Shown here in pieces: positions 32,472-53,772 of a stretch of DNA of 64,000 nucleotides. The position numbers were made by a program, and so were the translations under genes. The stretch lies in assembly GCA_963677595.1 (NCBI GenBank), contig OY782041.1, forward strand, positions 1,152,001-1,216,000, in the 5' to 3' direction. Every line of letters starts with the position of its first letter. Position 1 is the stretch's first letter. The notes below the pieces were generated by a model that saw nothing but the letters and a program-made list of their open reading frames with translations, was not told where the DNA came from and ran no database searches. This DNA is from Spirochaetia bacterium (lineage in GTDB: Bacteria > Spirochaetota > Spirochaetia > CAKZLE01).

Positions 32472-35435
32472 CTACAGCGGGAGTTTCTTCCCCTCGAGCA
32501 GCACCTCCGGCAGATCCCCACGGTCCTTATCGAGCATATCCTGGCTGCAGAGCAGTACGACAGACGAAAGCTCGTCCATCCTGTTCAGCAGGCGCTTCGC
32601 TGCCAGCATGATACTCTGGCCGTCCGCGGCAAGCAGCTGTTCCCGACGCTGCTCCCTCAGTTCGTCTGTCACGCCGTAGATACGTCTCCGGAACCCGATC
32701 ATGCTCTTCTCCGATGGGGAGAGCGGCCTGACGTCCTTGCCGACCAGGGCGATCACCGAGAGTTCCACGAGTTCATCGTCTACCGCACCCTCCGCGATCT
32801 TCACGAGTCCTGAACGGTAATCAGCGAGCGTCTTCGCAAGCCGCGGGTCACGGTAGGAGGAGAAGGAGGCGATATGCTCCATGATATCGACTGAGGCAGA
32901 GGCACCGTAGGCTCCGCCGACCACCCTGATAGAATCCCAGAACAGGCTCGTGCGCAGGATGTGGGTGAGGACTGACTCATGGACCTGCTGGGCTGTACCG
33001 AACGGGGAGGCAGGGATGACCTGTGCCGTGAAGGAGACATGGGCAGGGATGAGGAAGGTCTCCCCGATGAAGGGGCTCTCGTTCTCAGTTTCACCCTCGG
33101 CAGCAGGGATCGCTTCCTCAGAAGATGTGCCCCCTGGGAAGTCCCTGACCATGTTCCCGATCTGTCCCTTGAACGTTTCTACGTACTCTTCCTCGCAGGT
33201 CAGGTTCAGTGTCATCCTGGCCTTTACGATGATATGGTCCCTGATCTCCCCGAGGCTGTCGGCGATCCTGAGCATAGCCTCATCGTCCTTGAGGTCGATC
33301 CCGGTATTGAAGAACCACTGCCCGAACCCTTTCCAGGCATCTTCCTGGGCAGCAGCAGGGCTCATGGCGGCTGCCGCCCGCAGGGATGCATAATGGGAAC
33401 CGGAGGGGATGATGCTCGTGGCGAAGTCACTGCGCTGTTCGAGCAGGATGTCCCGGATCCTCTTCACGTCCTGCAGTTCCGCAGTCAGGAGGATCCTGCT
33501 GACCAGGGAGAGGGCTTCTTCCACATCCTCGGTAAGCATCTTCACCCGGCAGATCAGGAGGCGTTTCGGCAGGTCCGAGACCGCCTCGAGCCTGCAGGAG
33601 AACCCGCCGGTGATCCCCGCCAGCATCCTGGAGACCTCATCATACGAGTGTCCCGGGATCCCGGTCATATAGATGAGGCGGCTGAAGAGGGGGAGCAGCT
33701 CCATGAGCTCTTCCGGGAGCCCGCCTACATCGAAGACCAGGTCGAGGTAGGAGACACCGTTGGTGAACATCACTTGCCGGAAACAGGGTATGGAGTCGAT
33801 CTCATCCTCCACCAACTCGAGCCTGCTGATCTCAAGCGGCAGGTCGTCCCGTATGAGTCTCGGTATCTTCGCAAGATCCTCAGGGGCCTCCTCTGCCTGC
33901 TGGAACTCCTCGAAGAGCCTCTGTTCCTGTGCGAGGGACTTCAGCTCCTTCTTTGACAGCTTCCCCACCATCGCATCTAGCCGCTTCTTCAACTCCTGCT
34001 CGAAGGCCCTGTTATGGTCCTTAGCCGGAGTCACCGTCACGACGGACCGATGGGGGTTTGCCAGGATGTGATCTGTGATCCACTGTTCCAGGTAGCCGGC
34101 GGGCTCCCTGCAGGATGCGATCAGGTCCTTGAGGCGGTGCATGACCGGCTCGAAGACCAGGGTATCCTCAGGGGCGAGCCCATGGAGCCAGCCCCGGACC
34201 AGCCGGGTCATGACCCGCAGTCCCTCCGGGATGCCTCCCCGGATCTCACGCTGCTGGAACTCGATCCGGTGGATTGCCTGGTCGATGAGTTCTCCCGGGA
34301 TCCCTTCTGCGGAGAGTCTCTCAAGCTCGTTCTGTATCAGTGCCTCGAAGGCTTCGCGCTGCTCCGGGTCGGTTCCCCTGATACCCACGGTGAACACGAT
34401 ATTCCTGAAGTCGGAGTCCATCCCGCTGATCGAAGCGATGTCACTGCCGAGTCCCGACTCGATGATCGCCTTGTACAGTGGTGCCCCGGGGTTGCCGAGA
34501 AGGATCTCCACCAGCAGTTCCATCGTCATGACATCCAGGGGGTCCTGGATGGAACAGACGACCGAGTTGATGGTGATCGTAGATTTCCCTTCGGGACTCT
34601 CCTCCTCGAGCAGCGGGCTGGTATACTCATACCGCACCGGCTTGTCCCAGGGTTTCGGGTCTGGAACGGCATGGTTCAGCTTGATAGCCGTGAACTCCTT
34701 GAGGTACCCCTCCTCGAGGAAGAGGAGCTGCTCCTCTACCGGGATGTCCCCGTAGAGGTAGACCTTCCCGTTCGAGGGGTGGTAGAACTCCGCATGGAAG
34801 CCGGTGAACTGCTCATAGGTCAGGTTGACGATCTCCAGGGGATCCCCTCCCGAGTCATACCCGTAGGGCGTGTCGGGAAAGAGCGAGCGGATCGAGTGTT
34901 CTGCGACGATGGAATCATGGTCGGAGTAGGAACCCTTCATCTCGTTGAAGACGATCCCGTCATATGAGAAGTTCCCCTTCTGGTCCTGGGTCACCCTGAT
35001 GCCCTCCTGCTTGAAGGTCCCCTTGCGCAGCAGGGGGAAGAACACCGCATCGGCATAGACGGAGAGGAGGTTGTAGAAATCCTTCTTCACCGGCGAGGCT
35101 GCCGGATAGAGGGTCTTGTCCGGGTAGGTCATGGCATTGAGGAACGTATTGGCACTCCCCTTCATCAGCTCAAGGAAGGGGTCCTTCGTGGGGTATCGCC
35201 GTGATCCCGCGAGTACTGAGTGCTCTATGATGTGGGGCGTCCCGCTGCTGTTCTTGGGCGGTGTCTTGAAGATGAACCCGAAGACGTTCTCCGGATCATC
35301 ATTGGCTATCTTATAGAGCTCCAGGCCAGTCGCGTCATGGCGGAACAGGTACCCTGTTCCATGCTGTTCAGGCAGTTCCTTCTTTGATACCAGGGTGAAA
35401 CCATGCAGATCGTCACCGGTGTTGAGTCCGGACAT
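32472..35435 (-). CDS. M16C (presequence protease / insulinase family) zinc metallopeptidase
   Basis: HIIEH inverzincin motif, FLNAMTYPDKTLYP, GIVFNEMKG, IRVVGGAYG, SYRDP; start placed at 35435 behind GGAGGAGG. Confidence 0.92.
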   Translation of the reverse strand: MSGLNTGDDLHGFTLVSKKELPEQHGTGYLFRHDATGLELYKIANDDPENVFGFIFKTPPKNSSGTPHIIEHSVLAGSRRYPTKDPFLELMKGSANTFLNAMTYPDKTLYPAASPVKKDFYNLLSVYADAVFFPLLRKGTFKQEGIRVTQDQKGNFSYDGIVFNEMKGSYSDHDSIVAEHSIRSLFPDTPYGYDSGGDPLEIVNLTYEQFTGFHAEFYHPSNGKVYLYGDIPVEEQLLFLEEGYLKEFTAIKLNHAVPDPKPWDKPVRYEYTSPLLEEESPEGKSTITINSVVCSIQDPLDVMTMELLVEILLGNPGAPLYKAIIESGLGSDIASISGMDSDFRNIVFTVGIRGTDPEQREAFEALIQNELERLSAEGIPGELIDQAIHRIEFQQREIRGGIPEGLRVMTRLVRGWLHGLAPEDTLVFEPVMHRLKDLIASCREPAGYLEQWITDHILANPHRSVVTVTPAKDHNRAFEQELKKRLDAMVGKLSKKELKSLAQEQRLFEEFQQAEEAPEDLAKIPRLIRDDLPLEISRLELVEDEIDSIPCFRQVMFTNGVSYLDLVFDVGGLPEELMELLPLFSRLIYMTGIPGHSYDEVSRMLAGITGGFSCRLEAVSDLPKRLLICRVKMLTEDVEEALSLVSRILLTAELQDVKRIRDILLEQRSDFATSIIPSGSHYASLRAAAAMSPAAAQEDAWKGFGQWFFNTGIDLKDDEAMLRIADSLGEIRDHIIVKARMTLNLTCEEEYVETFKGQIGNMVRDFPGGTSSEEAIPAAEGETENESPFIGETFLIPAHVSFTAQVIPASPFGTAQQVHESVLTHILRTSLFWDSIRVVGGAYGASASVDIMEHIASFSSYRDPRLAKTLADYRSGLVKIAEGAVDDELVELSVIALVGKDVRPLSPSEKSMIGFRRRIYGVTDELREQRREQLLAADGQSIMLAAKRLLNRMDELSSVVLLCSQDMLDKDRGDLPEVLLEGKKLPL

Positions 35436-35562
35436 AAAACCTCCTCCCAAGACCAATTCAGCTCAGTATATGCGAGTATACCTGCCTTGTACAGAGGCTG
35501 AAGGGGGAATCGGGTACCGGCGACCTTGCGCAAGGGGAAACGGTTCTGGTAGTATGCAGGAC

Positions 35563-36552
35563 ATGGATAGAGAGACCATGCGGGAACGCAGCCGGATGTA
35601 CGGCAGGATACGACAGTTCTTTGACGACCGGGATTACGTGGAGGTGGATACCCCCATCCTCTCGGAGACCCTGATCCCCGAATCGACCATCTCCTGTTTC
35701 GCGACCAGCTTCACGAGCGAGTTCCATCACTCCAGGGACTACTACCTCATACCGTCTCCCGAGATCCATATGAAGCGACTGATCGGTGAAGGCTACGGGA
35801 ACATCTACCAGATCACGAAATGTTTCAGGAATGCCGAGCAGATCGGCAGCCAGCACAACCCGGAGTTCTCCATGCTCGAGTGGTATACGGTAGGCGAAGA
35901 CTCTCATGACGCGATCACGATCACCGAGGAGCTGATACAGGCGGTCTCCACTTCCAACACACCGGAGCACGTGAGGGCCCCCTTCGAACGCATGACGGTC
36001 GCAGAGGCCTTCTTCAGGCATACCGGGATCGATCTGGATACCGTACAGGCCCCTTCTGCGATGCGGGCGGCCCTGAAACATCTCGGCCTTCAGGAGAGCC
36101 GGGTGCCGGAGAGCTGGGAGGATATGTTCAACCGGATCTTCCTTACCCTGGTCGAGCCGAACCTCCCTGCCGACCACCCGGTCGTCCTCACTGAGTACCC
36201 GATACAGATCCGGTGCCTGGCTAAGCCGGTCAAGGGGACTCCCTACCGGGACCGCTGGGAGCTCTATATCGCGGGGGTGGAGCTTGCCAACTGCTACACG
36301 GAGATGACCGACGGCGAGGCGGTGAGGGCCTGCTTCACCGAGGAGTATGCCCGGCTCTCAACCGAGCGGGCCGTGACGGGGGAGACCATCCCCGATATAG
36401 ACGATGCGTATTATTCCATCTTTGACGGATCCTATCCTGAATGTTCCGGGGTCGCGATGGGACTGGACAGGCTTTTCATGGCATTACACTCCATTAAGAC
36501 TATTCAGGGGGTGATTTTATTTCCATTCTCTGATACAATCGGCAGGCGCTAG
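35563..36552 (+). CDS. epmA: EF-P--(R)-beta-lysine ligase
   Basis: LysRS catalytic domain without anticodon domain: EVDTP, PSPEIHMKRL, FRNAE..HNPEFSMLEWY, GVAMGLDRL; next to efp. Confidence 0.92.
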   Translation: MDRETMRERSRMYGRIRQFFDDRDYVEVDTPILSETLIPESTISCFATSFTSEFHHSRDYYLIPSPEIHMKRLIGEGYGNIYQITKCFRNAEQIGSQHNPEFSMLEWYTVGEDSHDAITITEELIQAVSTSNTPEHVRAPFERMTVAEAFFRHTGIDLDTVQAPSAMRAALKHLGLQESRVPESWEDMFNRIFLTLVEPNLPADHPVVLTEYPIQIRCLAKPVKGTPYRDRWELYIAGVELANCYTEMTDGEAVRACFTEEYARLSTERAVTGETIPDIDDAYYSIFDGSYPECSGVAMGLDRLFMALHSIKTIQGVILFPFSDTIGRR

Positions 36553-36673
36553 GTCTTCTACAGTCAACAAGCAGCAGCGTACACACGAATCTCTCATGGA
36601 CTGCTTTTTTAAGGTCCTGTGCCCCTGCGCGGGTAGAATTCGTTAATATTATAAGGTTTTTAAGAGGTGACTA

Positions 36674-37237
36674 ATGATTAAAGCAGGTCAGATTGAGAAA
36701 GGGATGGCACTCCTCGTGAAGGGACAGCCGTTCATCGTCGTAGAACGTGACTTCGTCAATCCCGGAAAGGGATCCGCATTCGCCAGGGTGAAGATGAAGA
36801 GCCCGACTACCGGACAGGTACTCAGGGAGACGATCAAGACCCAGGATTCAGTCGAGGACATCATGGTGGAGGACAAGGACTGCCAGTATCTCTATAATGA
36901 TGGTGAGTCATACCACTTCATGGATAATGACACCTTCGAGCAGTTCGAGATCCCGATGGCATCGTTCCCCGACTACCAGGTGCTCATGAAGGACGGGGAG
37001 ACCTACCGGGTCACTATGTGGGAGTCGAAACCGCTGAACATCGTCATCCCCTACAAAGTCGTCTATGAGGTAGCCGTAGCTGAGGACGCCATCAAGGGTG
37101 ATACCGTCCAGGGAGCATCCAAGGTCGTCGAGACCGAGACCGGCCTGAAGGTCAAGGTACCGATCTTCATCAAGCAGGGAGAGAAGATCCTCGTGAACAC
37201 CGAGACACGGGAGTATCTTGAACGAGTCAACAACTAG
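36674..37237 (+). CDS. efp: translation elongation factor P
   Basis: NPGKGSAF loop (Lys), KGDT, ETG..VKVPIFI..GE. Confidence 0.98.
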   Translation: MIKAGQIEKGMALLVKGQPFIVVERDFVNPGKGSAFARVKMKSPTTGQVLRETIKTQDSVEDIMVEDKDCQYLYNDGESYHFMDNDTFEQFEIPMASFPDYQVLMKDGETYRVTMWESKPLNIVIPYKVVYEVAVAEDAIKGDTVQGASKVVETETGLKVKVPIFIKQGEKILVNTETREYLERVNN

Positions 37238-37240
37238 CAG

Positions 37241-38467
37241 ATGTTAGATACACTTCTGCACAAGGAGGTCCTCTTCCGTACCCACGGGAAGGACCTCTCT
37301 TTTTCCCTGTCGATGGGGCTCTTCAGCAGTAATGACATCGACACGGGATCGATCCTGCTCATCGACGAACTCATCGCACATGCCGATATTGCCGCCATGG
37401 ACCGTGTCCTTGATGCAGGCTGCGGTGTCGGGACCCTCGGGATCACGCTCAAGGCGCTCTATCCAGGCCTTGAGGTGACCGCCACGGACCGGGATGCCCT
37501 GGCCCTCGCCGTGACAGCCCATAACGCGGAGAAGAACGGCACCCCCATCATGACCGCACCGGGCCTCGATACCCTCATCTGGGACGGGGATCACGACGGA
37601 TTCATCGGTAGTGAAGGTTCCTATGACCTGGTCATGACCAACATCCCGGCCAAGGCCGGGGCACCCGTCCTGAAGCGGTTCCTGCAGAACGGGTTGTTCC
37701 AGCTGACAGATACGGGGATCTTCGCCTTCGTCATCGTGGACACCCTTAACAGTTTTGCAGAACAGATGTGCGCAGAACTCTCATGTGAGATCATCCATAA
37801 GCATGACGGACCCCGCCATACCGTCTTCCTTCTCCGTCGAACGGAAGAGACGGTATGCCCGCTTGATACCGGATTCCCCGGAGTCTATGCCAGGTGTACC
37901 GCTGAGTTTTCCGTCGGGAAGAGTTCCTACACCCTGGATACGGCCTACAGCATACCAGGATTCGATACCGTCCCCTATGAGGCAGCTCTCGGCATGGCTA
38001 TGGCAGAGAAGCATGTCGGGACATCCCTGGCTGTATGGAACCCGGGACAGGGCCATGCAGCGGTCGGCCTCCTGAAGGAGGGCGGGGTCAGGGAGGTCTG
38101 CCTGGCAGGCAGGGACCTGCTCGCCCTGCTCATCTCCCGCCACTCTATAGCACGATATGGGAACGGGGCGACGGTATCTATCATACATACACACAGTATA
38201 ACTGAGTTTTTGTCAATATGGCATATGCCGCATTCACAACCGCAGGGATTGCTCGTCATCTTTCCCGACCCTATCCCCCTCGTCCCTTTCAGGTCTCTGG
38301 TAGAGTCCTCGTATCTTGTTGCTGAAAAGAAGGTTAATGCATCCATCATCCTTGCTTCGAAGAGCTCGGTACTCGCTCCCTTTACCAGGGGTCTGCCCGG
38401 TTTCATCCTGAAAGGATCAAAAAAGAAGAACGGGTTTCGGGCAATATTCCTACAGAATCTTTACTAA
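37241..38467 (+). CDS. class I SAM-dependent methyltransferase (RsmC/MTS-like, with degenerate second domain)
   Basis: GLFSS..IDTGS.LL, VLDAGCGVG.LG, TNIP. Confidence 0.8.
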   Translation: MLDTLLHKEVLFRTHGKDLSFSLSMGLFSSNDIDTGSILLIDELIAHADIAAMDRVLDAGCGVGTLGITLKALYPGLEVTATDRDALALAVTAHNAEKNGTPIMTAPGLDTLIWDGDHDGFIGSEGSYDLVMTNIPAKAGAPVLKRFLQNGLFQLTDTGIFAFVIVDTLNSFAEQMCAELSCEIIHKHDGPRHTVFLLRRTEETVCPLDTGFPGVYARCTAEFSVGKSSYTLDTAYSIPGFDTVPYEAALGMAMAEKHVGTSLAVWNPGQGHAAVGLLKEGGVREVCLAGRDLLALLISRHSIARYGNGATVSIIHTHSITEFLSIWHMPHSQPQGLLVIFPDPIPLVPFRSLVESSYLVAEKKVNASIILASKSSVLAPFTRGLPGFILKGSKKKNGFRAIFLQNLY

Positions 38468-38525
38468 CCGGGCTCTTTGCTTTATCATATTACTAATAAT
38501 TGAAAAGACTTAAGGGAGTTTATCC

Positions 38526-38957
38526 ATGAGAATAACCACCAAGGGGCGATATGCTCTCAGAGCGATCCTCTACCTGATCCACTGCAGCGAAGATAAACCC
38601 GTATCCATCAAGACGCTCTCCGAGCATACTCAGTTATCGCCGGAGTTCCTTGAGCAGATCTTCTTCAGGTTGAGGAAGGCGAATATCATCACCTCGACCC
38701 GGGGACCGGGCGGCGGCTTCCGGTTCGAGAAGGCTGCATCCGAGGTCTCCGTCAATGACATCTTCAATGCAGTCGATGAAGGCTACCATGTAGCACCCTG
38801 CACCGAAGAGGACCCGGAGAAGGCCATCAACTGTGAATATGCCGGGGATTGTGTTGCCTGCGACTTCTGGCAGTATACCAACGACATCTTCATCGAGTAC
38901 TTCTCTACCATCTCCCTGCAGGATGTCCTCGACAAGAACTTCCCCAACCTGAGATAA
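38526..38957 (+). CDS. Rrf2-family transcriptional regulator
   Basis: MRITTKGRYALR, FLEQIF, STRGPGGGF; Cys-rich C-terminal segment. Confidence 0.92.
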   Translation: MRITTKGRYALRAILYLIHCSEDKPVSIKTLSEHTQLSPEFLEQIFFRLRKANIITSTRGPGGGFRFEKAASEVSVNDIFNAVDEGYHVAPCTEEDPEKAINCEYAGDCVACDFWQYTNDIFIEYFSTISLQDVLDKNFPNLR

Positions 38958-38963
38958 CCACCT

Positions 38964-40046
38964 CTACAGGTCAGTATACCAGATCTCCTCGCCATCCATG
39001 CTGCGGAAGAGATATCGATTTCCATCCCTCCTGATCAGGGATGGTTCCTGCAGGGTAACCTTGCCGCCGCCATCCGGCAGGTCGACGGCATACCTTGGCA
39101 TCGCGACCCCGGAGAGCCTCCTCCTCAGTGCTGACTCGATCCTGAAGCCCTCCTCGAGGGAGACCCGAAGATGGGAGGTACCGCTGGCCAGGTCTCCCTG
39201 GAACAGGTAATAGGGGGTGACCCGATGCGATACCAGCAGGTTCATCAGCTCCTCGAGGGTATCGGCATCATCGTTGACTCCCCTGAGGAGCACGGTCTGG
39301 TTATAGAGAAGGATCCCATGGTCCGAGAGTCTCCTCAGGGCAGCCGCACTCTCTGAGTCGAGTTCCCTGGGATGGTTGAACTGAGTCATCAGGAGGACCG
39401 GTGCTCCATCAGCGGTCTTCCCAAGGAGCTTGAGGAGGGAATCAGTCACCCGTGAGGGGAGAACGACCGGGACCCTCGTCCCGATCCGCAGGACCAGATC
39501 CGGTCGTGCCGCACGGAAGATGGCGAACATCCTCTCAAGCTGGCTGTCTTCCATGATCAGGGGATCTCCCCCGCTGATGAGCAGTTCACGGACCTCAGGA
39601 AGCCCCTCGAGCACCCGGGCAGCCTCCTCGATCTCATCGGCAGCCGCGATACCCTGGTGCTTTCCGGTGAACCTTCGCCTGAAACAATGGCGGCAGTACA
39701 TGGCACAGGTATCGGTCGCAAGGAAGACGGCCCTGCTCTGGTAGCGGCGGATGAGTCTCCCTGTCAGCAGATGCTGCTCCTCCGCCAGCGGGTCGGGGGT
39801 CTCGCATTCGAGGGAGATAAACTCCCGTGAAGAGGGGACCGCCTGCAGCCTGATCGGGTCGTCCCTGCCTGCAGCAGGGTCGATCAGCCCGAGGTACCGC
39901 TTGGGGAGGCGGAACCCGAGGGTCTCACGCCCTTCTCCGTTGTCGAACCACTCCTCTTCCTCATCGCTCAGCACCAGGTGTCCCGATATACCGTCACGAT
40001 CTGTCACTGCAGCTTTCAGCTGCTTCTTCCACTCTTCACTCGCCAT
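38964..40046 (-). CDS. epmB: KamA-family radical SAM, lysine 2,3-aminomutase for EF-P modification
   Basis: CAMYCRHCFRR, SGGDPL, NHPRE, NQTVLLRGVND, DLPDGGGK; lies near efp and epmA. Confidence 0.85.
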   Translation of the reverse strand: MASEEWKKQLKAAVTDRDGISGHLVLSDEEEEWFDNGEGRETLGFRLPKRYLGLIDPAAGRDDPIRLQAVPSSREFISLECETPDPLAEEQHLLTGRLIRRYQSRAVFLATDTCAMYCRHCFRRRFTGKHQGIAAADEIEEAARVLEGLPEVRELLISGGDPLIMEDSQLERMFAIFRAARPDLVLRIGTRVPVVLPSRVTDSLLKLLGKTADGAPVLLMTQFNHPRELDSESAAALRRLSDHGILLYNQTVLLRGVNDDADTLEELMNLLVSHRVTPYYLFQGDLASGTSHLRVSLEEGFRIESALRRRLSGVAMPRYAVDLPDGGGKVTLQEPSLIRRDGNRYLFRSMDGEEIWYTDL

Positions 40047-41582: not shown

Positions 41583-42869
41583 ATGAAGAAGAAACAGTTC
41601 GGATTGAGCCAGAGCATCATCGACCGCGCACTCAGCTTGTCACGGTTCTCCAACCTCTTCAGTACCTTCGGGGGTATGGTGACGGAGTTCATCCTCCTGT
41701 ATGCGCTCTGCATCATGATCTTCCTGCTGATCCCCGATATACAGTATTCCTTCCTCACCATGAACATCCACCCGCTCCTGTTCGTCTCCTGCTTCATCGG
41801 GATCAGGCACGGGTTCCTGGCAGGACTGCTCTCGGCCCTCCTCTCCTCGATGACCTATTTCTTCTCCTACACGTTCCTGAACCTCGACCCCATCCTCTTC
41901 TTCAGGAGCTACGAGTTCTACAAGTTCCCCCTCATCTTCACGCTCGGGGGCTACCTCTCGGGAAGGATCCATGACTCCAACTCGCGGCAGATGCAGGAGA
42001 TGCGGGATGCCAATGCGGAAGTCCTGCAGGAGTACGATGAGCTGGAAAAGACCTACAAGCGAACGATCCAGATGTACAACGAGCTCAAGGAGCAGATCGT
42101 CGGCGCCGAGTACAGTATCTTCTCCCTCTATGATATCGCATCCTCCCTGCAGACCACCAACCCAGAGAAGGTCTATACCGAGGCGATCGGCCTCCTCTAT
42201 AAGTTCATCAAAGCCCGCGCCCTCTCGATCTACACGATCGAGAACGGGGACTTCATGCGCCTGAAGATCCGGTTCGGCGGCAAGGCACACAAGAACAGCC
42301 GGAAGAAGTATACCGATTCCACCATGTACGACCAGCTCTTCAAGACCAGGAAGGCTGTCAGGTGGGCCGCTGATGCAGGCGAGGATGCACCGATCTTCAG
42401 TGCTCCCATCGTGTCCCAGGAGGAGGTCATCGGCATCATCGATATCGAGGAGATCGAGTTCGAGTACGTGACCGAGTACAGCTTCAGCATCTTCCAGGTC
42501 ATCAGTGAATGGATCGCAAAGGCACTCTCCCAGGCCCTCGACATCGACAAGCAGTTCCAGCTCATGGGCATCGACTACTCGAACATGCTGCAGGTCCCGC
42601 AGTTCGAGCTCCAGCTGAAGGAAGAGCAGGTGAGAAAGGAGAAGTACGGGCTGCCGTTCTGCCAGACCACCTACGACCTCGGCTTCCTCGATTCGGATGA
42701 GATCATCCCGAAGCTGCAGCGGACGCTGCGCAACGTCGACTACCTCTGCTATGACCCGGAGCAGAACCTTGCACGGGTACTCCTGCCGGCTACCGATGAG
42801 GAGAACTACATCATCGTCGAGAAGAGGATCTTCTCTTCACTCGGCTTCAGACTGGATCGGGCCATATGA
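41583..42869 (+). CDS. pelD: PelD-like c-di-GMP receptor (TM helices + coiled coil + GAF + degenerate GGDEF)
   Basis: N-terminal TM bundle (GIRHG..AG), coiled coil, GAF (APIV...VIGIIDIEEIEF), RNVD RxxD site, LLPAT; next to pel genes. Confidence 0.75.
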   Translation: MKKKQFGLSQSIIDRALSLSRFSNLFSTFGGMVTEFILLYALCIMIFLLIPDIQYSFLTMNIHPLLFVSCFIGIRHGFLAGLLSALLSSMTYFFSYTFLNLDPILFFRSYEFYKFPLIFTLGGYLSGRIHDSNSRQMQEMRDANAEVLQEYDELEKTYKRTIQMYNELKEQIVGAEYSIFSLYDIASSLQTTNPEKVYTEAIGLLYKFIKARALSIYTIENGDFMRLKIRFGGKAHKNSRKKYTDSTMYDQLFKTRKAVRWAADAGEDAPIFSAPIVSQEEVIGIIDIEEIEFEYVTEYSFSIFQVISEWIAKALSQALDIDKQFQLMGIDYSNMLQVPQFELQLKEEQVRKEKYGLPFCQTTYDLGFLDSDEIIPKLQRTLRNVDYLCYDPEQNLARVLLPATDEENYIIVEKRIFSSLGFRLDRAI

Positions 42870-44719
42870 AAAGAACCACCCTCAGGTACCTGCTGGTCAT
42901 CATCATAGTCATCATCACGGCGATCATCCTCCAGTACCTGAAGGTGATCAACTTCATACCACGGGCCTTCTGGATAAGCACGATCACCCGCCAGGAGATG
43001 ACCGAGCGGCAGACCCGGTTCATCAGTTCTGACACGGTGCCGGATAAGTATGACGGGGTGTTCATCATCTATGAGGGGTCAAGGACCCATGAACGAAACA
43101 GCTACTACCACCTGGCCCAGACCTTCAGGAACGCCCATATCCACCATGAGGATTATGATGTGCTGACCGATGATATCGGGGAGATGCTGGAGGATATCCC
43201 TTTGGGGAGCCACATCATCCTGGCGAATGAGATCTCAGAGCAGCTATCAGATGAGGAGATAGCCCTGCTTGAGCAGCTGGTATATGAAGGTGCTCAACTG
43301 AGCATCGTCGTCCGTTCCTTCGATGCCAGGCTCGGGAAGGTCGCGGGGTTCTCCGGCATAACCAGGTACATCGAGACCACAGGGATCAACTTCGAGGAAC
43401 CCATCTTCCCAGGACTCGATGAGACAGTGACCAACCCGAAAGCCTTCCACTCCTCCTCCCTCGAGCTGTCCCTGTCAGAAGGGACTGAGGTCCTGCTCAC
43501 TTCGGATGATGAGACCCCGCTGGCATGGAAACACCCCTACGGCAGCGGTTCCGTGTTCTATGCGAACACGACCATCTTCCAGGACAAGAAGAACCGGGGG
43601 CTGCTGCTGCAGTACCTCCTTGATAATGCAGACTACGGCTTGGCCACGGTATTCAATAAGAAGATCATGAATATCGACGACTTCCCGGCCCCGCTGCCGG
43701 CGGGGAGGGATGCCGATATCTACGCAGAGTACCATCGTGACATCATCAAGTTCTACAAGGACATCTGGTGGCCCGATATGAGGGACCTCGCGGCAAAGTA
43801 TGACCTGGCTTATACCGGGCTGATCATCGGGACCTATAACGATGATACGACACCGCCGTTCAAGGAACTGACTGAAGGGGACCTGGAGAATATCGAGTTC
43901 TTTGCCAGGAAGCTTGATGAGATCGACGGCGAACTGGGGATCCACGGATACAACCACAACTCGCTCATAACGGAAGGCCTCATAGACTTCGAGGATTACA
44001 GTTATAACCCCTGGGCTTCCAAAGAGGACATGGCCGAGGCACTCACCTACCTCAGGTCCGAGATCGAGGCCCTCGTCGGGGAGATAGAATTCAGGACCTA
44101 TGTTCCCCCATCCAACCTGGCGAACAGGCTGTCGGAGGAGGCTGTCCTGGCTGCCTTCCCTGAACTCAAGGTCTTCGGGGGACTCTATACCGGTTCGCAG
44201 AACGAGAAGGAGACCCTGATCCAGGAATTCGGGCCGAACCCCTATTTTGATGGTGTATATGACTTCCCGCGGTTCAGTTCCGGCTACCTGAATGAGAATG
44301 AGATGTGGTCTATCTACAGCGCGATCGCTGAGCTCGGCGTATTCAACCACTTCATCCACCCTGACGACCTGCTTGACCCAGAACGGTCTTTGAACAATTC
44401 ATGGGAGGTCCTATTCAAGAGTCTCAGCGAGACCTTCGCGGAATTGACCGATCGCTTCCCATACCTCGAATCCGTGACTGATTATGAGGCATACCTCGAC
44501 TACCTGAATTATGAGAAGATGGACATCTTCAGCAGAAAAGAGGGTTCCACCATCGATATATGGGTCGAGGATGCACCACTCCCAACCTATGCCTACCTGA
44601 GAGTCGATGCCCCGATCGTCGATACGGACGGGATCACGCTCCATTCGCTTGACCGGGACGGTCTCTACCTCATCGAGATCCGGAAACCGGAATCCTCTGT
44701 GACACTCTTCTCCAAATAG
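42866..44719 (+). CDS. pelA: DUF2194 / PelA-type polysaccharide deacetylase
   Basis: N-terminal TM, NIDDFPAP (CE4-like DD motif), ELGIHGYNH, YVPPSN, PRFSSG, HFIHPDD. Confidence 0.75.
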   Translation: MKRTTLRYLLVIIIVIITAIILQYLKVINFIPRAFWISTITRQEMTERQTRFISSDTVPDKYDGVFIIYEGSRTHERNSYYHLAQTFRNAHIHHEDYDVLTDDIGEMLEDIPLGSHIILANEISEQLSDEEIALLEQLVYEGAQLSIVVRSFDARLGKVAGFSGITRYIETTGINFEEPIFPGLDETVTNPKAFHSSSLELSLSEGTEVLLTSDDETPLAWKHPYGSGSVFYANTTIFQDKKNRGLLLQYLLDNADYGLATVFNKKIMNIDDFPAPLPAGRDADIYAEYHRDIIKFYKDIWWPDMRDLAAKYDLAYTGLIIGTYNDDTTPPFKELTEGDLENIEFFARKLDEIDGELGIHGYNHNSLITEGLIDFEDYSYNPWASKEDMAEALTYLRSEIEALVGEIEFRTYVPPSNLANRLSEEAVLAAFPELKVFGGLYTGSQNEKETLIQEFGPNPYFDGVYDFPRFSSGYLNENEMWSIYSAIAELGVFNHFIHPDDLLDPERSLNNSWEVLFKSLSETFAELTDRFPYLESVTDYEAYLDYLNYEKMDIFSRKEGSTIDIWVEDAPLPTYAYLRVDAPIVDTDGITLHSLDRDGLYLIEIRKPESSVTLFSK

Positions 44720-44735
44720 GGACGGATGGTGCGCA

Positions 44736-47348
44736 TCAGGTATTGCGTTCATCCTCCTTCTTGAGATAGTTCGATATCATATCCTGCAGGGAGACATGTT
44801 CATCATGTTCTTCGTCCTCTTCCTCTTCCTCTGCATCCAGCACGATTCCGGTGAAGGTCCTGATGAACTGGTCATCCGACTCCTCCGCTTCGGGCTCCTC
44901 ACTGATGAGTTCGGAGGGTATATCTCTAAGCTCATCCCCGTATTCAGCCAGGAGGGACCCGAGCATTGGCATATCTTCCTCCTCAGCCTCGAGGAGCTCG
45001 AGCGGCGTAGGTGCGGTCTCTTCCTGCTCAGTCCCCTCAGGAGCGGGTTCAGCAGCGGACTCCTTGCCCTTGAGGATGTCTTCCAGGACATCATGCAGTT
45101 CGGAGACGGTCTCCTCCCTTGAGACAGGCTCCTCGGTGAGCAGGTGATCGAGGATGTCGCCGATCTGGTCCGGTTCCTCCTCGGCAGGCTCTGTCACCTC
45201 AGGAGCGGGTTCAGCAGCGGCCTCCTTGCCCTTGAGGATGTCTTCCAGGACATCATGCAGTTCGGAGACGGTCTCCTCCCTTGAGACAGGCTCCTCGGTG
45301 AGCAGGTGGTCGAGGATCTCCCCGATCTGGTCCGGTTCCTCTTCGGCAGGCTCTTTCACCTCAGGAGCGGGTTCAGCAGGGGTCTCCTTGCCCTTGAGGA
45401 TCTCTTCCAGGACATCATGCAGTTCGGAGACGTTCTCCTCCCTTGAGACAGACTCCTCGGCGAGCAGGTGGTCGAGGATCTCTCTGAGATGGTCCGGCTT
45501 CTCTTCGGCGGGCTCCTCGAGGATCTCGGTGAGCGTCTCCTTCAGGTGCTCTTCAGTCTCCTGGCGCTTCCTCTTCCTGACCCGGTGCCGTTTCTCCTCC
45601 TTCTCAAGGATCTCCAGCGGTGTGACGATCTCCTCGTCCGCAGGGACCGGCTCCTTCATCTCAGGCTCTGCAGGAGCTTCCGTCTCCGTCTCAGCTTCAG
45701 GGGCTTCCTTGATCAGCCCTGCATCAGCTCCCCCGAAGAGGTTAGCCAGCAGCTGTGCGTCCTTCTCCGATTCCAGCTGGGTACGGTCCTGTACCCCGAA
45801 CAGCTCCTCTTCGGCGTCGGGCAGATTCTCACCACGCTCGATCGCGTCCTTCCGCTTCTTCTCAAGCAGGAGCCGGTCCAGGGCATCCTGGTCCGTCATC
45901 CGTTTGTCGATCCACTCCTCCAGCTTCTCGAAGGTCTTGCTCTTGGTCTTGGTATGCACCGGCTGGGTCCGGTAGGTGTGGCTGATCACATCACGATACC
46001 CCATGATCATCAGGTAGAGCCCGAAGAGCATGGTCACGAAACTTGCCAGGAAGAACCCGAACCCGTAGAAGTTCTCCCCCCAGGAGAGGGAGAGGAGCGT
46101 GAATATGACGTTCGTGACCAGGAAGACCACCATGAGCAGGAGGGTCTTGTTACGTTCACCGATGTAGAGGAGGACCTGCATGAAGATGAGGATGAAGGAG
46201 TTGCAGAAGGCTCCCAGGGCATAGATCATGAAGATCTGCCGGGAGCTCTCCGGAACGTTGAGCAGCGGGAAGAGCGAGCGGGAAAGGACGATGATGATGA
46301 TCGTGATGAACAGCTGGATCTCGAAGGTCTGCAGGATGTTCTTGTTCAGGGAGCTCCACATCCGCTCAGCGAAGACCTTCAGCTCAGAGAAGGGGCCATT
46401 CCTCAGGACCGCCAGGAAGAACTCCCGGCACTTCACCGAGAAGTCGGTCTCGATGAGCACCATGAAGAGCATGGTCGAGGGAAGGATCGAAAGATAGGAG
46501 TAGAAGGTGGCGATGTCATAGAAGGGGGCATACCGGAAGGTCCCGAAGAGCTCGATACTGATCGGGGAGAACCACATGATGATGTTATCGATCCAGATTG
46601 CCATGGTATAGATGACGCCGATCGGCCAGAGACTCGGCTCGCTGTGGAAGTAGCGGATGAAATGGAGGACCTTCCCGTTATCCTCCTTCATCTCTGAGAG
46701 CAGCGCGATCAGGAGGAACATCGTGAAGAACACGATCCCCCCGAGGTAGGCCAGCAGGAGGTTCGTCGACCCGCTGAACTCGGAGAACTGCATCGGGTTG
46801 TTCGCGAGGATGAGGATGAGGATGAAGGTGACGAAGGTCCCGAGGATGTTGGACATCGTGACCAGCTTGAAGTTCTTCAGGGTCGACTGGTAGACGATGA
46901 GCATCCAGAGGACTGAGAGTACCACCATCAGGGCGACCGAGAGGTAGAGGAACTCTATCGGGATCTCACTGTTCCGGTAGAACCAGATCCCGAAGGTAAG
47001 CGCGATCAGCGAGACCAGGGCAGAGGAACCCCAGAAGGAAGGTTTTATGTACTCATACTCCTCCTTGTAGATCCTGTCCGCAAGGAACCGGGTGATGACC
47101 ATCTGGAACGGTGCGGTCAGGATCTGCGAGAAGAGGGTGCTGTAGATGATCGCCGAGATGAGCAGTTCCCGTTCGACGAAGGGGAGGTTCCACCTCCTGG
47201 AGAAGGCGAGGATCAGGTTGATGGTGACGATACTGATGATCCAGGGGCCTGCCGAGACGATGGCTGTATGGAACCAGGCATGTACCCGTGTCGAGTAGGC
47301 ATCATCACTCTTGATCATCTTCCTCAGGGAGAAGCCTATACCTGCCAT
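44736..47348 (-). CDS. pelG: PelG exopolysaccharide transporter with long acidic C-terminal extension
   Basis: MAGIGFSLRK, SAGPW, TRFLADRIY, WIDNIIMW, YDIATF, ETDF in the first ~460 aa; ~400-aa E/P-rich tail. Confidence 0.88.
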   Translation of the reverse strand: MAGIGFSLRKMIKSDDAYSTRVHAWFHTAIVSAGPWIISIVTINLILAFSRRWNLPFVERELLISAIIYSTLFSQILTAPFQMVITRFLADRIYKEEYEYIKPSFWGSSALVSLIALTFGIWFYRNSEIPIEFLYLSVALMVVLSVLWMLIVYQSTLKNFKLVTMSNILGTFVTFILILILANNPMQFSEFSGSTNLLLAYLGGIVFFTMFLLIALLSEMKEDNGKVLHFIRYFHSEPSLWPIGVIYTMAIWIDNIIMWFSPISIELFGTFRYAPFYDIATFYSYLSILPSTMLFMVLIETDFSVKCREFFLAVLRNGPFSELKVFAERMWSSLNKNILQTFEIQLFITIIIIVLSRSLFPLLNVPESSRQIFMIYALGAFCNSFILIFMQVLLYIGERNKTLLLMVVFLVTNVIFTLLSLSWGENFYGFGFFLASFVTMLFGLYLMIMGYRDVISHTYRTQPVHTKTKSKTFEKLEEWIDKRMTDQDALDRLLLEKKRKDAIERGENLPDAEEELFGVQDRTQLESEKDAQLLANLFGGADAGLIKEAPEAETETEAPAEPEMKEPVPADEEIVTPLEILEKEEKRHRVRKRKRQETEEHLKETLTEILEEPAEEKPDHLREILDHLLAEESVSREENVSELHDVLEEILKGKETPAEPAPEVKEPAEEEPDQIGEILDHLLTEEPVSREETVSELHDVLEDILKGKEAAAEPAPEVTEPAEEEPDQIGDILDHLLTEEPVSREETVSELHDVLEDILKGKESAAEPAPEGTEQEETAPTPLELLEAEEEDMPMLGSLLAEYGDELRDIPSELISEEPEAEESDDQFIRTFTGIVLDAEEEEEDEEHDEHVSLQDMISNYLKKEDERNT
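45037..45516 (-). repeat. three tandem 162-bp (54-aa) repeats in the pelG tail
   Basis: TCAGGAGCGGGTTCAGCAG at 45037, 45199 and 45361 (162-bp period); unit EPAEEEPDQIGEILDHLLTEEPVSREETVSELHDVLEDILKGKEAAAEPAPEVT. Confidence 0.95.
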
Positions 47349-47349
47349 G

Positions 47350-48921
47350 TCAGTTCAGCTCCTCTACATGCAGGCCGATCTGCACATCCTTGCCCTGGGA
47401 ACTCTGGAGGGAGATCCGGTAGATCTCATCATAGGCCTCGAAGACTGCCTGCCTGCTGTAGATGACCCTGGTGCGTTCGAGGCCGTTGAGTCCGTACTGC
47501 TTCCCCATCTCCCGGTCCTCATAGAGCTGGATGATCGCATCTGCCGTCTCTCTCGGGGAGACCGGCTTGGTGATGATGCCCCCGTGGCCGAACCCGTCAC
47601 CGACCCCCTCGACCAGGTCCCGGCAGGAGCCGACATCGGAGGAGACCACCGGGGTCGCACAGGCATACGACTCGAGGATGACCAGCGGCTGGGCCTCGGA
47701 GATCGAGGTCAGGACGATGACGTCAAGGATCGGCATGTACTCCTTGATGTTCACCCGCCCCGTGAAGATGATCTGCTCCTCGAGTCCCAGTTCCTTGACC
47801 AGGTCCCGGCACTCCCTCGCATACTCCTCCTCCTCATCATCCGGCCCGATGACATAGAGCAGCGTATCCTGGTACTTGGCATAGACGTAACTGAAAGCCT
47901 TGATCAGCGTCTTCACATCCTTGATGGGGACCACCCGGAGGATCGCCCCGATGTTATAGGTCTCATGCGGGTCCTTATGTCTCGGGAACCCCTCGATATC
48001 GACACCGTTGGGGATGACATAGGCCCGTTCCGGGTCGACACCGAGTTCCTGCTGTATCCCGCTGTTGTGGGCGAAGAGGGCTATCGCTATATCGCAGGTC
48101 TGGTAGGCCCCCCGGGAGAGAAAATAGAAGTAATCGATCCAGAGCTTCTTGTAGGGACCCTTTACCCAGTCGACCTTGAGTATTTCCTCCTCACGTTCCC
48201 GCGCATAGATACCGTGCTCGGTGAGGACGAACGGTTTGCCGTAGGTGAACTTCCCGATCAGCCCGATCAGCCCGGCATACCCCGTGGAGATCGCATGGTA
48301 AACATCGGCATCAGGCAGCGGCTGCTGCATGATGGAGATCAGGGTAGCCAACATGGAACGGAAGGTCCAGAAGAAGAGGTTGAATCCCTCATCCGGGTAA
48401 TTGGCCTCATAGAGCTCGACCAGGCTGTCAAAGAAGTGCCTGCTCATGAGGTAGTCGATCGTATTGCCGATCTTCGCCGGATCGCAGACCAGACGGGTGA
48501 TCAGCTCCCAGTCGATGGTGGAATCGAAGAAGGTGAACTTGCGCAGCTGCTCCTTCTCCTCCCGGGACAGGCGCATCCCGCGCTTCATCGTCTGGTCGAG
48601 GTTCAGGAAATCATACATGTAGATCGTCCTGAACTCGATGACATTCTCGGGGAAGGTATACTTCAGCTCCTTGACCTGGTCTTCGGAAGCCATGATGGTG
48701 AGTATCTTGAACCGGTAGTCCTTCATGATGTTCAGCAGCTGGTTCACCCAGGAGGAGACCCCCCCTGCGATATAGGGGTAGGCGCCTTCCAGGATCAGAC
48801 AGATAGTCTTCCCGTCCGGCTCGAGGGACGCACCATGGCGGCCCCAGTCCCGGGGACGCCGGCTGTCGAGTTCACCCCTAAAGAGTTTGACCTGCTGCTT
48901 CTTCGCTCGTCTCAGTTTCAT
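47350..48921 (-). CDS. pelF: PelF GT4 glycosyltransferase
   Basis: ICLILEGAYPY..GGVSSW, HAISTGYAG, TEHGIYARER, RVVPIKD, SISEAQPLVILE. Confidence 0.92.
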   Translation of the reverse strand: MKLRRAKKQQVKLFRGELDSRRPRDWGRHGASLEPDGKTICLILEGAYPYIAGGVSSWVNQLLNIMKDYRFKILTIMASEDQVKELKYTFPENVIEFRTIYMYDFLNLDQTMKRGMRLSREEKEQLRKFTFFDSTIDWELITRLVCDPAKIGNTIDYLMSRHFFDSLVELYEANYPDEGFNLFFWTFRSMLATLISIMQQPLPDADVYHAISTGYAGLIGLIGKFTYGKPFVLTEHGIYAREREEEILKVDWVKGPYKKLWIDYFYFLSRGAYQTCDIAIALFAHNSGIQQELGVDPERAYVIPNGVDIEGFPRHKDPHETYNIGAILRVVPIKDVKTLIKAFSYVYAKYQDTLLYVIGPDDEEEEYARECRDLVKELGLEEQIIFTGRVNIKEYMPILDVIVLTSISEAQPLVILESYACATPVVSSDVGSCRDLVEGVGDGFGHGGIITKPVSPRETADAIIQLYEDREMGKQYGLNGLERTRVIYSRQAVFEAYDEIYRISLQSSQGKDVQIGLHVEELN

Positions 48922-49966
48922 CCTGTATCCAAAATGCCAGGCGTTCAGACTGCTCCTTCGTGAGTTTGCTGCCCATCCTGCTTATGATCCTCGCCAGGTT
49001 CTTGACCTGGGGAAGATCACCCTGCTTGTAGAAACAGCTCATCAGCGTGAACTGTATGCCAACGTCCTCTGGATTGTTCTTCGCGACCTCCTTGAGGAGC
49101 TCACAGGTCTCATCCGCCCTTCCCTGCTCCATATAACTGTAGGCCAGGTGCTTCACGATCGAGAGATCGGAACCGAAGGTCTGCACCTGCAGCTCAAGGA
49201 TTTCGATGACCTTCTTTCGGTAGATCGGGATGATGTCATCATCGAGCAGCCCGGAATCGACATAGTTCTCATAGAGGGTGATCAGGTTCTCGAGGTTCTC
49301 CTTCGTCAGGTCCTCGGCAGCCTTGTCCCTGCCGTCCCTGATAGCCTGCTCGAACCGATTCTCCAGGTAGTTCAGGGTCGTCGCCGTATAATGGACGACC
49401 TCCGGGTCCTCATCCTCCAGCCCCTGCTTGAGTGTCCTGCAGTTCTGCACGACATCGGCGGAGAGCAGGTCTACGATCACTCCCTTCTTGTTGATCGCAT
49501 CGGAATAGGTGAAGACCCCGGACATATCCATGAGCTTCGCCACCTGTGCGAAATCGACGGTCTCCTTCTGCTCGTACTTCATCTCGGCCTCTTCGGCATA
49601 TGCGTGCTTGAACTCCTGCTGGACGAGCTTCATGCCGACGAAATAGAGGACGATATAAGAGATGCTGTAGATCAGCCCCCCCATTCCGGGGATGACGAGG
49701 AAGAGGACGGGGGAGATGTTCCGCGTCTGCGGGGAGGAGCGCTTGCGGATGACCAGGATCCCGCCGAAGAGGGCGGCATGGACCAGGAGCAGCACGGCGA
49801 TGCTTGAGTCGACCTGCTGCACGAAGGTGAAGTAGTAGTAGAAGATGATGAGCATGAGGTCGACGAGCCCGATGCATACGATGATCAGGGGATAGATCCA
49901 GGGGTTGCTCGTATAGGTGAAGTAGAGTTTCTGTATCTCATCCCGGTTCATCGCAGTGTCGGCCAT
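48878..49966 (-). CDS. pelE: PelE-like membrane protein with HEAT/TPR-like region
   Basis: N-terminal TMs (PGMGG), LKQGLEDEDPEVVHY.A, YVDSGLL, TPR-like C-terminus; directly upstream of pelF. Confidence 0.7.
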   Translation of the reverse strand: MADTAMNRDEIQKLYFTYTSNPWIYPLIIVCIGLVDLMLIIFYYYFTFVQQVDSSIAVLLLVHAALFGGILVIRKRSSPQTRNISPVLFLVIPGMGGLIYSISYIVLYFVGMKLVQQEFKHAYAEEAEMKYEQKETVDFAQVAKLMDMSGVFTYSDAINKKGVIVDLLSADVVQNCRTLKQGLEDEDPEVVHYTATTLNYLENRFEQAIRDGRDKAAEDLTKENLENLITLYENYVDSGLLDDDIIPIYRKKVIEILELQVQTFGSDLSIVKHLAYSYMEQGRADETCELLKEVAKNNPEDVGIQFTLMSCFYKQGDLPQVKNLARIISRMGSKLTKEQSERLAFWIQDETETSEEAAGQTL

Positions 49967-53160: not shown

Positions 53161-53772
53161 TTACCTGTTCAGCATGATCTTGACACCCACCTCATCAGTG
53201 AGGAATGCGATCTGGCTCATCCGGTCGGCATCGGCCTGCCCTGCTGAGAAATCAGCATAGGGTCCGGTGAGGACCTCGAAGGAACCACCCTCCTCGACCA
53301 CCTCGGTGGTGATCTCAAGCTCCTGCAGCTGTGAAGAGAGGGCATCGGCAGCTGCCTGGGAGTCCTCGGTTCCCAACAGGACCCAGTAGAAAGCATCCGG
53401 TTGGGCAGCACCAGCTTCTGGTTGGGCAGCCGGTTCCGGCTCCGGTGCCGGCGCTGGTTCCGGCCCTGCAGCAGTCGTACTCGAAGCGGCGGGCTTCACG
53501 ACTTCCGCAGGTTTCGCGGTCTCCGCGACCGCAGGTGTTTCTTCAGCCGCAGTGTCATCGCCCGGAGGCTCGGCAGCCTCTGTTCCATCAGGTACAGCTG
53601 GTGCGGCAGCAGCTGCCGCGGGGGTCTCAATCGGTTCGTCCGCTGCCTGGACAGCAGAGGCCTGCCGGTCTCCCATCATCTCCAGGTAGGCGATAGCACC
53701 GCCGGAGAGGACAGCGAACAGCAGGGTGAGGACGAACAGGAACCAAAGGAATTTACTTCTCGCCATCATCAA
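53161..53772 (-). CDS. bitopic protein with Ala/Pro/Glu linker and SPOR-like C-terminal domain
   Basis: N-terminal TM, low-complexity linker, YWVLLG...AADAL...FEVLTGPY. Confidence 0.7.
   Translation of the reverse strand: MMMARSKFLWFLFVLTLLFAVLSGGAIAYLEMMGDRQASAVQAADEPIETPAAAAAAPAVPDGTEAAEPPGDDTAAEETPAVAETAKPAEVVKPAASSTTAAGPEPAPAPEPEPAAQPEAGAAQPDAFYWVLLGTEDSQAAADALSSQLQELEITTEVVEEGGSFEVLTGPYADFSAGQADADRMSQIAFLTDEVGVKIMLNR

Follow-up and report, generated by a model that had tools for sequence, protein, structure and literature searches.

A lineage-specific acidic extension of the exporter PelG, with conserved motifs towards its end

The window considered here is a stretch of 64,000 nucleotides from contig OY782041.1, belonging to a bacterium of the Spirochaetia. 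It carries a pelG gene whose product is a known exporter with a lineage-specific C-terminal extension: a long acidic tail that contains three 54-residue repeats and ends in conserved motifs. Short motifs that stay fixed, in an acidic linker that changes fast and varies in length, make a pattern that suggests a tether with binding sites at its ends. I propose a flexible tether that docks, through the motifs at its end, on the Pel synthase (perhaps on PelF), and would put the probability of this at about 45%.

The initial annotation read the frame as running past the membrane domain without a stop, and so it does: the open reading frame (44736-47348, minus strand) extends for 870 codons, with no internal stop. 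Residues 1-459 match positions 1-452 of the Pfam profile for PelG (PF16933) with 392 bits against a cut-off of 29 (E 4.5e-117). Past this domain lie 411 residues, 23.8% glutamate and 6.8% proline, with a net charge of -86. The genuinely new part is about 385 residues and not 411, because residues 460-485 are the ordinary C-terminal helix of PelG. In the following list of the parts of the gene, AF2 stands for AlphaFold2, TRF for Tandem Repeats Finder and pN for the proportion of non-synonymous differences.

45972 to 47348, minus strand: PelG membrane domain, residues 1-459, with 12 predicted membrane helices and a MATE/MurJ-like (MOP) fold (PF16933, AF2, Foldseek).
45894 to 45971, minus strand: ordinary PelG C-terminal helix, residues 460-485, QP..F..LE.W, found in most of 104 homologues and outside the novelty.
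45849 to 45893, minus strand: helix extension A2, residues 486-500, D.DALD.L.LEK, clade-specific (alignment; pN of residues 460-500).
45735 to 45797, minus strand: motif B, residues 518-538, E.EKD..LL..LF, common to the acidic-tail family (alignments).
45564 to 45593, minus strand: basic patch within the acidic tail, residues 586-595 (sequence; sister species have a basic stretch at a similar position).
45354 to 45515, minus strand: repeat unit 1, residues 612-665, predicted to form two amphipathic acidic helices, with a Pro/Glu linker (TRF, unit comparison, AF2).
45192 to 45353, minus strand: repeat unit 2, residues 666-719 (TRF, unit comparison).
45030 to 45191, minus strand: repeat unit 3, residues 720-773 (TRF, unit comparison).
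44841 to 44864, minus strand: motif C, residues 829-836, I.T[FY]TGI[VI], in 7/10 acidic-tail PelGs (alignments, codon comparison).
44757 to 44789, minus strand: motif D, residues 854-864, L..[ILMV][ILV]..YL[KRQ], a predicted amphipathic helix, in 10/10 acidic-tail PelGs (AF2, alignments, profile, codon comparison).

The tail is real and not misassembled, because the contig of a second strain carries the same tail with three units. The PelG on that contig of 4,356,794 bases (P0002) is 95% identical to the window's, with 8 differences in the 459 residues of the core and 21 in the 162 of the repeats. Its unit 1 matches unit 2 of the window at 49 of 54 positions but unit 1 at only 42, so the units exchange sequence, with an unchanged count. 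The copy-number variation that the initial annotation thought possible is therefore not what is seen: both assembled strains have three units, with unit variants shuffled between them. Contigs from 4 public runs (at most 3 samples) cover the tail in parts, none spanning the whole array; X1 may itself be where the window came from, and none of the runs listed as carrying the sequence is from RNA. The indels listed in the contigs keep the frame (three indels of 6 bases each, and a -1/+1 pair separated by four bases), and no 162-bp skip is listed in the parts of the array that they cover. That the tail or its repeats are an artefact of assembly or annotation is hardly credible: tandem repeats are prone to misassembly and no read or contig examined spans the array, but besides the second strain, four other genomes of the family have long PelG tails. 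Two short unrelated fragments, P0106 and P0107, share the 90% cluster of the window's PelG, so that its true cluster count is 2 and not 4.

PelG is found in five of the six genomes of the family, with lengths of 870, 838, 788, 659 and 633 residues; the genome without a match is 89% complete. Elsewhere in the class (PelG matches in 97 of 401 genomes, 10 of them in this clade at 58% identity or more), matters are different. Among 27 distinct spirochaete loci outside the clade, taken from 87 genomes for their top scores or their long open frames, 26 end at most 43 residues past the core, and in one the frame runs through a gap in the assembly. The comparison of lengths among relatives that the initial annotation called for thus sets the family apart. 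Acidic tails of 174-409 residues occur in 9 of 104 homologues of 478-1523 residues (P0002-P0010), and across all acidic-tail PelGs the tail is 174 to 411 residues long, with a linker that does not align between genera. A search with residues 590-870 returned P0002 as its sole match among 7988 candidates of 478-1523 residues and no match among 7994 proteins of 30-477 residues, hence no stand-alone form. By these searches the 54-residue unit appears confined to this species, in keeping with the earlier idea of a recent triplication; the tail itself is older. In the sister lineage the PelG tail is basic or neutral, 110-249 residues long, and its terminal helix is a different one; one further relative (G122) has an acidic tail of 6-residue repeats without the motifs. 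Two other proteins, P0014 and P0275, carry at residues ~509-641 a beta-rich domain of about 58 residues; P0014 has it once, P0275 twice with a period of 75. This domain matches no family and has no copy in the window's genome; it may resemble the small Cren7-like/DUF5679 domains.

After residue 485 the order is A2, motif B, the non-alignable linker, motif C, motif D. Motif D, present in every acidic-tail protein, occurs in 0/9 of the other proteins of the clade. A terminal motif like IDYDD occurs in 5 of 6 shorter-tail proteins and is absent from the window's PelG. The patterns for C and D were written after seeing the sequences, which is why a separate profile was trained on 5 shorter-tail relatives alone, from training stretches still cut with the common pattern. 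With this profile the C-terminal helix is the best-scoring position in 4/4 proteins of the window's genus, and its top score is reached by 0-0.5% of 2000 shuffles. Codons point the same way. Between the sister species G001 and G002, motifs C and D, stretches picked for being conserved, differ by 8 synonymous and 0 non-synonymous changes in 25 codons, and pN is 0.03 in the core, 0.04 in residues 460-500 and 0.38 in the linker, where synonymous sites are saturated. Between strains, 22 differences were classed (44769-45014; 40 shown of 71, without those in the array and one that belongs to an unrelated contig): 4/4 inside C or D are silent, and 11/18 outside them change a residue. The initial annotation had placed its weight on the repeats; the evidence places it on the conserved motifs that follow them. 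The thought that the tail binds a partner fares better, as conserved short motifs would point to just that.

As for the repeats, TRF reports a single array (45026-45515, period 162, 3.0 copies, 93% matches, no indels), which agrees with the 162-bp tandem triplication first described, and the segments quoted with it (EILDHLL, ELHDVLEDIL, LQDMISNYLKK) are present. The 54-residue units are 76-94% identical overall. To call them near-identical suits units 2 and 3 (51/54 residues, 155/162 nucleotides) but not unit 1, which agrees with the other two at 43/54 and 41/54 residues (148 and 143/162 nucleotides). The 4.33-Mb single-contig genome holds no further copy of the repeat DNA. Ratios of non-synonymous to synonymous substitution (dN/dS) for the repeats are 1.12, 0.84 and 0.22, from few sites; the repeats look to be evolving near neutrally, and the triplication looks recent and largely neutral. 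Paratox (PF24313) was considered as a family for the repeats and rejected (25.2 bits summed across all three, against a cut-off of 27, with no single stretch passing), as were matches to PHROG 535/2133 and MAD6, which are under the cut-off and compositional.

An acidic tail of about 400 residues had been described. The length holds (411 residues past the domain), but the acidity is uneven: the first 26 or so residues are ordinary helix, residues 460-500 are neutral, and 586-595 form the basic patch. The tail contains the second most negative 200-residue segment among 2593 predicted proteins of at least 200 residues in the genome, a set of rough gene calls made for this analysis, and given that rank it is not a product of chance. 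The most acidic segment of all lies outside the 64-kb window, in a protein of 483 residues that is anchored in the membrane and contains a very long stretch of (PE)n (G000:C1:2481866-2483317). Antisense frames over the tail (45154-45975 and 44796-45122) are taken as shadows of its Glu-rich codons.

How unusual is such a tail? The best 150 of 1422 PelG family representatives have a median length of 467 residues, and 131 of them lie at 440-530, which supports the earlier statement that ordinary PelGs lack one. Fifteen of the 150 have at least 560 residues. Two of these are from this clade; others add a membrane helix with LysM, CotH or YDxxG repeats, one has a HATPase domain, and two have acidic tails (P0127, Planctomycetota, 831 residues; P0122). 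On the strength of this survey a long acidic tail is rare on PelG, not unique. The tails of P0127 and P0122 are rich in Ala, Pro and Glu, the former with repeats, and bear no sequence likeness to that of the window; acidic tails arose separately elsewhere among PelGs. In the papers searched, including the accessible parts of PMC7112194, 10.1101/768473, PMC7890745 and PMC8892547, neither a tail of this kind nor a pel operon in spirochaetes was found described; subscription papers and supplementary homologue tables were outside the scope.

The C-terminus of PelG takes many fusions: a GT4 glycosyltransferase other than PelF (a 753-member cluster), HATPase_c_2, LysM, CotH, YDxxG repeats and unrelated acidic tails (P0097, P0179, P0113, P0186, P0071, P0042-P0044, P0119, P0141, P0144, P0114, P0254, P0127, P0122). 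I found none of these additions described in the papers searched. Extensions such as those of P0127, P0122, P0179, P0097, P0113, P0186 and P0042 resemble the window's in placing extra sequence after the PelG domain, but they share no sequence likeness with it, and many bring in a further membrane helix together with a domain on the outside (LysM, CotH, YDxxG repeats), unlike the tail considered here. In a tree built from 61 PelG cores, this clade's 21 rows form one group (support 100), which sits with PelGs of clostridial and fusobacterial type and separately from the 4 usual spirochaete PelGs in the set. Because the tree came from a quick search, with only the Shimodaira-Hasegawa-like approximate likelihood ratio test (SH-aLRT) and no root test, I claim neither a donor nor an order of events.

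On which side of the membrane would the tail lie, and in what form? AF2, run on an alignment of 18 sequences, predicts 12 long helices as far as residue 461, followed by isolated helices, mostly with a confidence score (pLDDT) below 50. The tail is thus predicted to be disordered with isolated short helices, much as the initial annotation supposed. Foldseek finds the best matches to the core in MATE, MurJ and WzxE (E from 6e-6), a relation that agrees with the one given for PelG in the accessible part of PMC13254593. Full-length profile and 12-helix MOP-type fold both identify the protein as PelG. The tail has no hydrophobic segment (maximum 0.65), and in P0097 (GT4) and P0179 (HATPase) cytoplasmic domains are fused at the same place without an extra membrane helix. 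MATE proteins have both ends in the cytoplasm. For these three reasons the tail is likely cytoplasmic. A sequence search of the PDB gave no match to PelG at E<=1 apart from two weak ones to the tail, and a feature search of the ESM Atlas with residues 486-870 gave no usable match.

Candidate partners lie next door. The neighbouring genes of the locus are:

47350 to 48921, minus strand: pelF glycosyltransferase, candidate partner, with extensions of ~35 residues at the N-terminus and ~15 at the C-terminus (NF038011 E 1.9e-112, alignment, AF2).
48878 to 49966, minus strand: pelE-like membrane protein with a TPR region, candidate partner (weak TPR matches, position, alignment).
41583 to 42869, plus strand: pelD-like gene, with a membrane part, GAF and a degenerate GGDEF-like end with RxxD (RNVD) (GAF_3 E 1.7e-4).
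42866 to 44719, plus strand: pelA_DA-like deacetylase (DUF2194) with intact DD, HxxxH and H..D motifs (PF09960 E 3.5e-101, motif comparison).

Here pelE-pelF-pelG faces pelD-pelA_DA (41583-49966), with 16 bp between the stops of pelG and pelA_DA; the identities of pelD and pelE rest on weak domain matches, position and conservation. The same split, convergent layout beside an MFS gene is present in all five family genomes and the sister loci read, with -4 to 35 bp between the two stops in the former and at most 144 bp in the latter. A scan found no terminator-like site between the convergent genes, a weak result (1 site found, 5.2 expected by chance). As in the Gram-positive type of operon, pelD, pelE, pelA_DA and pelF adjoin pelG. 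Compared with pelDEA_DAFG of Bacillus cereus ATCC 10987, as given in the accessible parts of 10.1101/768473 and PMC13254593, the order differs in that the operon is in two convergent halves, PelG has some 385 residues past the usual end, PelE and PelF have extra terminal segments, and the host is a spirochaete. The operon looks intact, because PelD keeps its RxxD (13/13 sequences listed) and PelA_DA keeps its catalytic motifs (DD, HxxxH and the MT5 His, intact in 5/5 family loci; motif list from the part of PMC13254593 available). The window's PelG is predicted to export Pel. In all five basic-tail sister loci (L021, L030, L064, L065, L066) the HxxxH and MT5 residues of the deacetylase are lost; they are kept in the acidic-tail family and G122. 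The pelE gene is split in one family genome (G003; L019 10055-11140) and whole in the near-identical L029, and a sequencing error is likely.

Three terminal segments of the neighbours deserve mention. The C-terminal extension of PelF (47350-47400) is conserved in 5/5 family genomes and 0/7 related loci outside the family, and is unstructured when modelled alone (pLDDT 26-44). Its N-terminal extension (48810-48921) is clade-specific: it is found in the two lineages with helix A2 and is absent from G122 and G380. The N-terminal segment of PelE (49900-49966) is clade-specific. At 35395-40046, immediately upstream of the MFS and pel genes, and also in L017, are genes that look like epmA, efp and lysine 2,3-aminomutase, which I take to be an EF-P modification cluster. 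A SPOR-domain protein at 53161-53772 has an Ala/Pro linker with a 12-bp triple repeat (53429-53464).

The proposal may now be put in full. The C-terminus of PelG has gained a long acidic tail that is predicted to lie in the cytoplasm and to be disordered, and its motifs C and D would dock on a folded partner, most likely a subunit of the Pel synthase such as PelF. The three 54-residue units would be a recent expansion of the linker by slippage or unequal exchange and would serve mostly as spacer, although their two amphipathic helices each, with the hydrophobic spacing of motif D, may add weak extra contacts. What I infer is the binding and the partner. PelD, PelE, PelF and PelG form one complex in Pseudomonas aeruginosa (cited in the part of PMC13254593 available), and PelD, PelE and PelF would offer the nearest folded surfaces. 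The ends of PelF are a lead only: their match with the tail is not independent evidence, because each lineage contributes a single evolutionary event. For the mechanism, the closest precedent is BcsH (CcpA), a disordered, proline-rich part of a machine for exopolysaccharide, which uses short helices at its C-terminus to plug hydrophobic pockets in its partner (PMC9757748, accessible part). It differs in being a separate soluble protein, not based on acidic repeats, with a known partner (BcsD) and filaments; the window's element is fused to PelG, is only 6.8% proline, and had no stand-alone form among the proteins of 30-477 residues.

Several facts weigh against this proposal. Most PelGs function with no tail at all, in the sister clade the tail is short and basic, and the dN/dS values of the repeats are near neutral. 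Motif C is missing from 3/10 acidic-tail PelGs, and P0014 and P0275, inside the acidic-tail clade, have the beta-rich domain in place of motifs B-D. Two loci 99.3-99.4% identical to G003 (L029, L031) have a one-base deletion that ends PelG before motif D, likely a sequencing error; L031 carries a second frameshift. A charge-swap scan of PelD, PelE, PelF and PelA between the acidic-tail and basic-tail clades found many lineage differences and no pointer. Under the motif D profile the six repeat helices take ranks 2 to 8, a resemblance that is suggestive, but only one of them scores above the 95th percentile of shuffles, and a position scoring at least 14 is present in 410 of the genome's 3198 proteins.

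A bolder version would make the tail a built-in multivalent scaffold, in which motif D and the six look-alike helices each grip a synthase subunit. I consider this improbable. Were it true, one PelG would gather several glycosyltransferases or link synthases into arrays, as BcsH does for cellulose, repeat shuffling would tune the amount or location of Pel, and the C-terminus of PelG would be a general plug-in site for controlling Pel synthesis.

An alternative view looks outside the operon: the motifs and repeat helices might bind a landmark at the pole or in the cytoskeleton, or a diguanylate cyclase, thereby positioning the synthase or turning it on. The initial annotation, in likening the tail to FimV/HubP, leaned this way. 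The cytoplasmic regions of HubP/FimV are unstructured and acidic, with short helices and imperfect repeats that vary between close species (PMC12918733, accessible part), and the window's PelG shares this layout: membrane-anchored, with a long acidic region of imperfect repeats, predicted to be disordered, on the cytoplasmic side and with short helices. Conserved motifs call for a partner without saying which, the genome encodes 21 predicted proteins with GG[DE]EF, and P0179 is a PelG fused to a HATPase regulatory domain through an acidic linker. The same source gives LysM and the FimV domain as features shared by HubP/FimV, with polar anchoring of HubP dependent on LysM. The window's PelG has no LysM, no single-pass layout, no C-terminal FimV/TPR domain and no sequence match; its tail hangs on a polysaccharide exporter, ends in short motifs, and shows one terminal helix in AF2. 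Pfam found neither LysM nor the FimV C-terminal domain, and NCBIfam, which holds FimV models, gave no match at E<=1 for five tail-bearing proteins. The likeness is one of layout, not descent: the acidic disordered plan stands, the relationship does not. Nor does any candidate partner gene travel with the locus, the MFS gene being its only constant neighbour among the genes queried. This view is unlikely, but it is the strongest competitor of the docking tether.

It is less likely again that the tail is a mostly neutral appendage, arising when the frame ran into the gap before convergent pelA and grew by slippage, with its end motifs kept for stability or against proteolysis. The closeness of the two stops in every family genome and sister locus fits this, as do the range of tail lengths, the linker that cannot be aligned across genera, the near-neutral repeats, and the unrelated acidic repeat tails without shared motifs on other PelGs (P0127, P0122, G122). 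Against it, the order and sequence of A2, B, C and D are preserved between two genera whose synonymous sites are near saturation, and a neutral tail might be expected to have gathered stops and frameshifts.

Finally, the end motifs could fold back on the cytoplasmic face of PelG itself, or on a second PelG, as a plug or an oligomerisation strap. The C-terminal tail of BcsC folds back into its own channel (PMC8892547, accessible part), no second gene is needed, and the conservation of helix A2 comes close to that of the core. The AF2 monomer, from an alignment of only 18 rows, shows no confident packing, with pLDDT of about 30 for motif C and about 54 for motif D, and self-docking seems improbable.

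The importance of the tail has its bounds: the hosts are apparently uncultured, low-complexity tails are common in bacteria, and the triplication looks largely neutral. Yet how PelD, PelE, PelF and PelG assemble is unsolved, and no chain in the PDB could be matched to PelG by sequence. The joint gain of terminal segments by PelG, PelF and PelE in one lineage would provide short, testable handles on how the synthase is put together.

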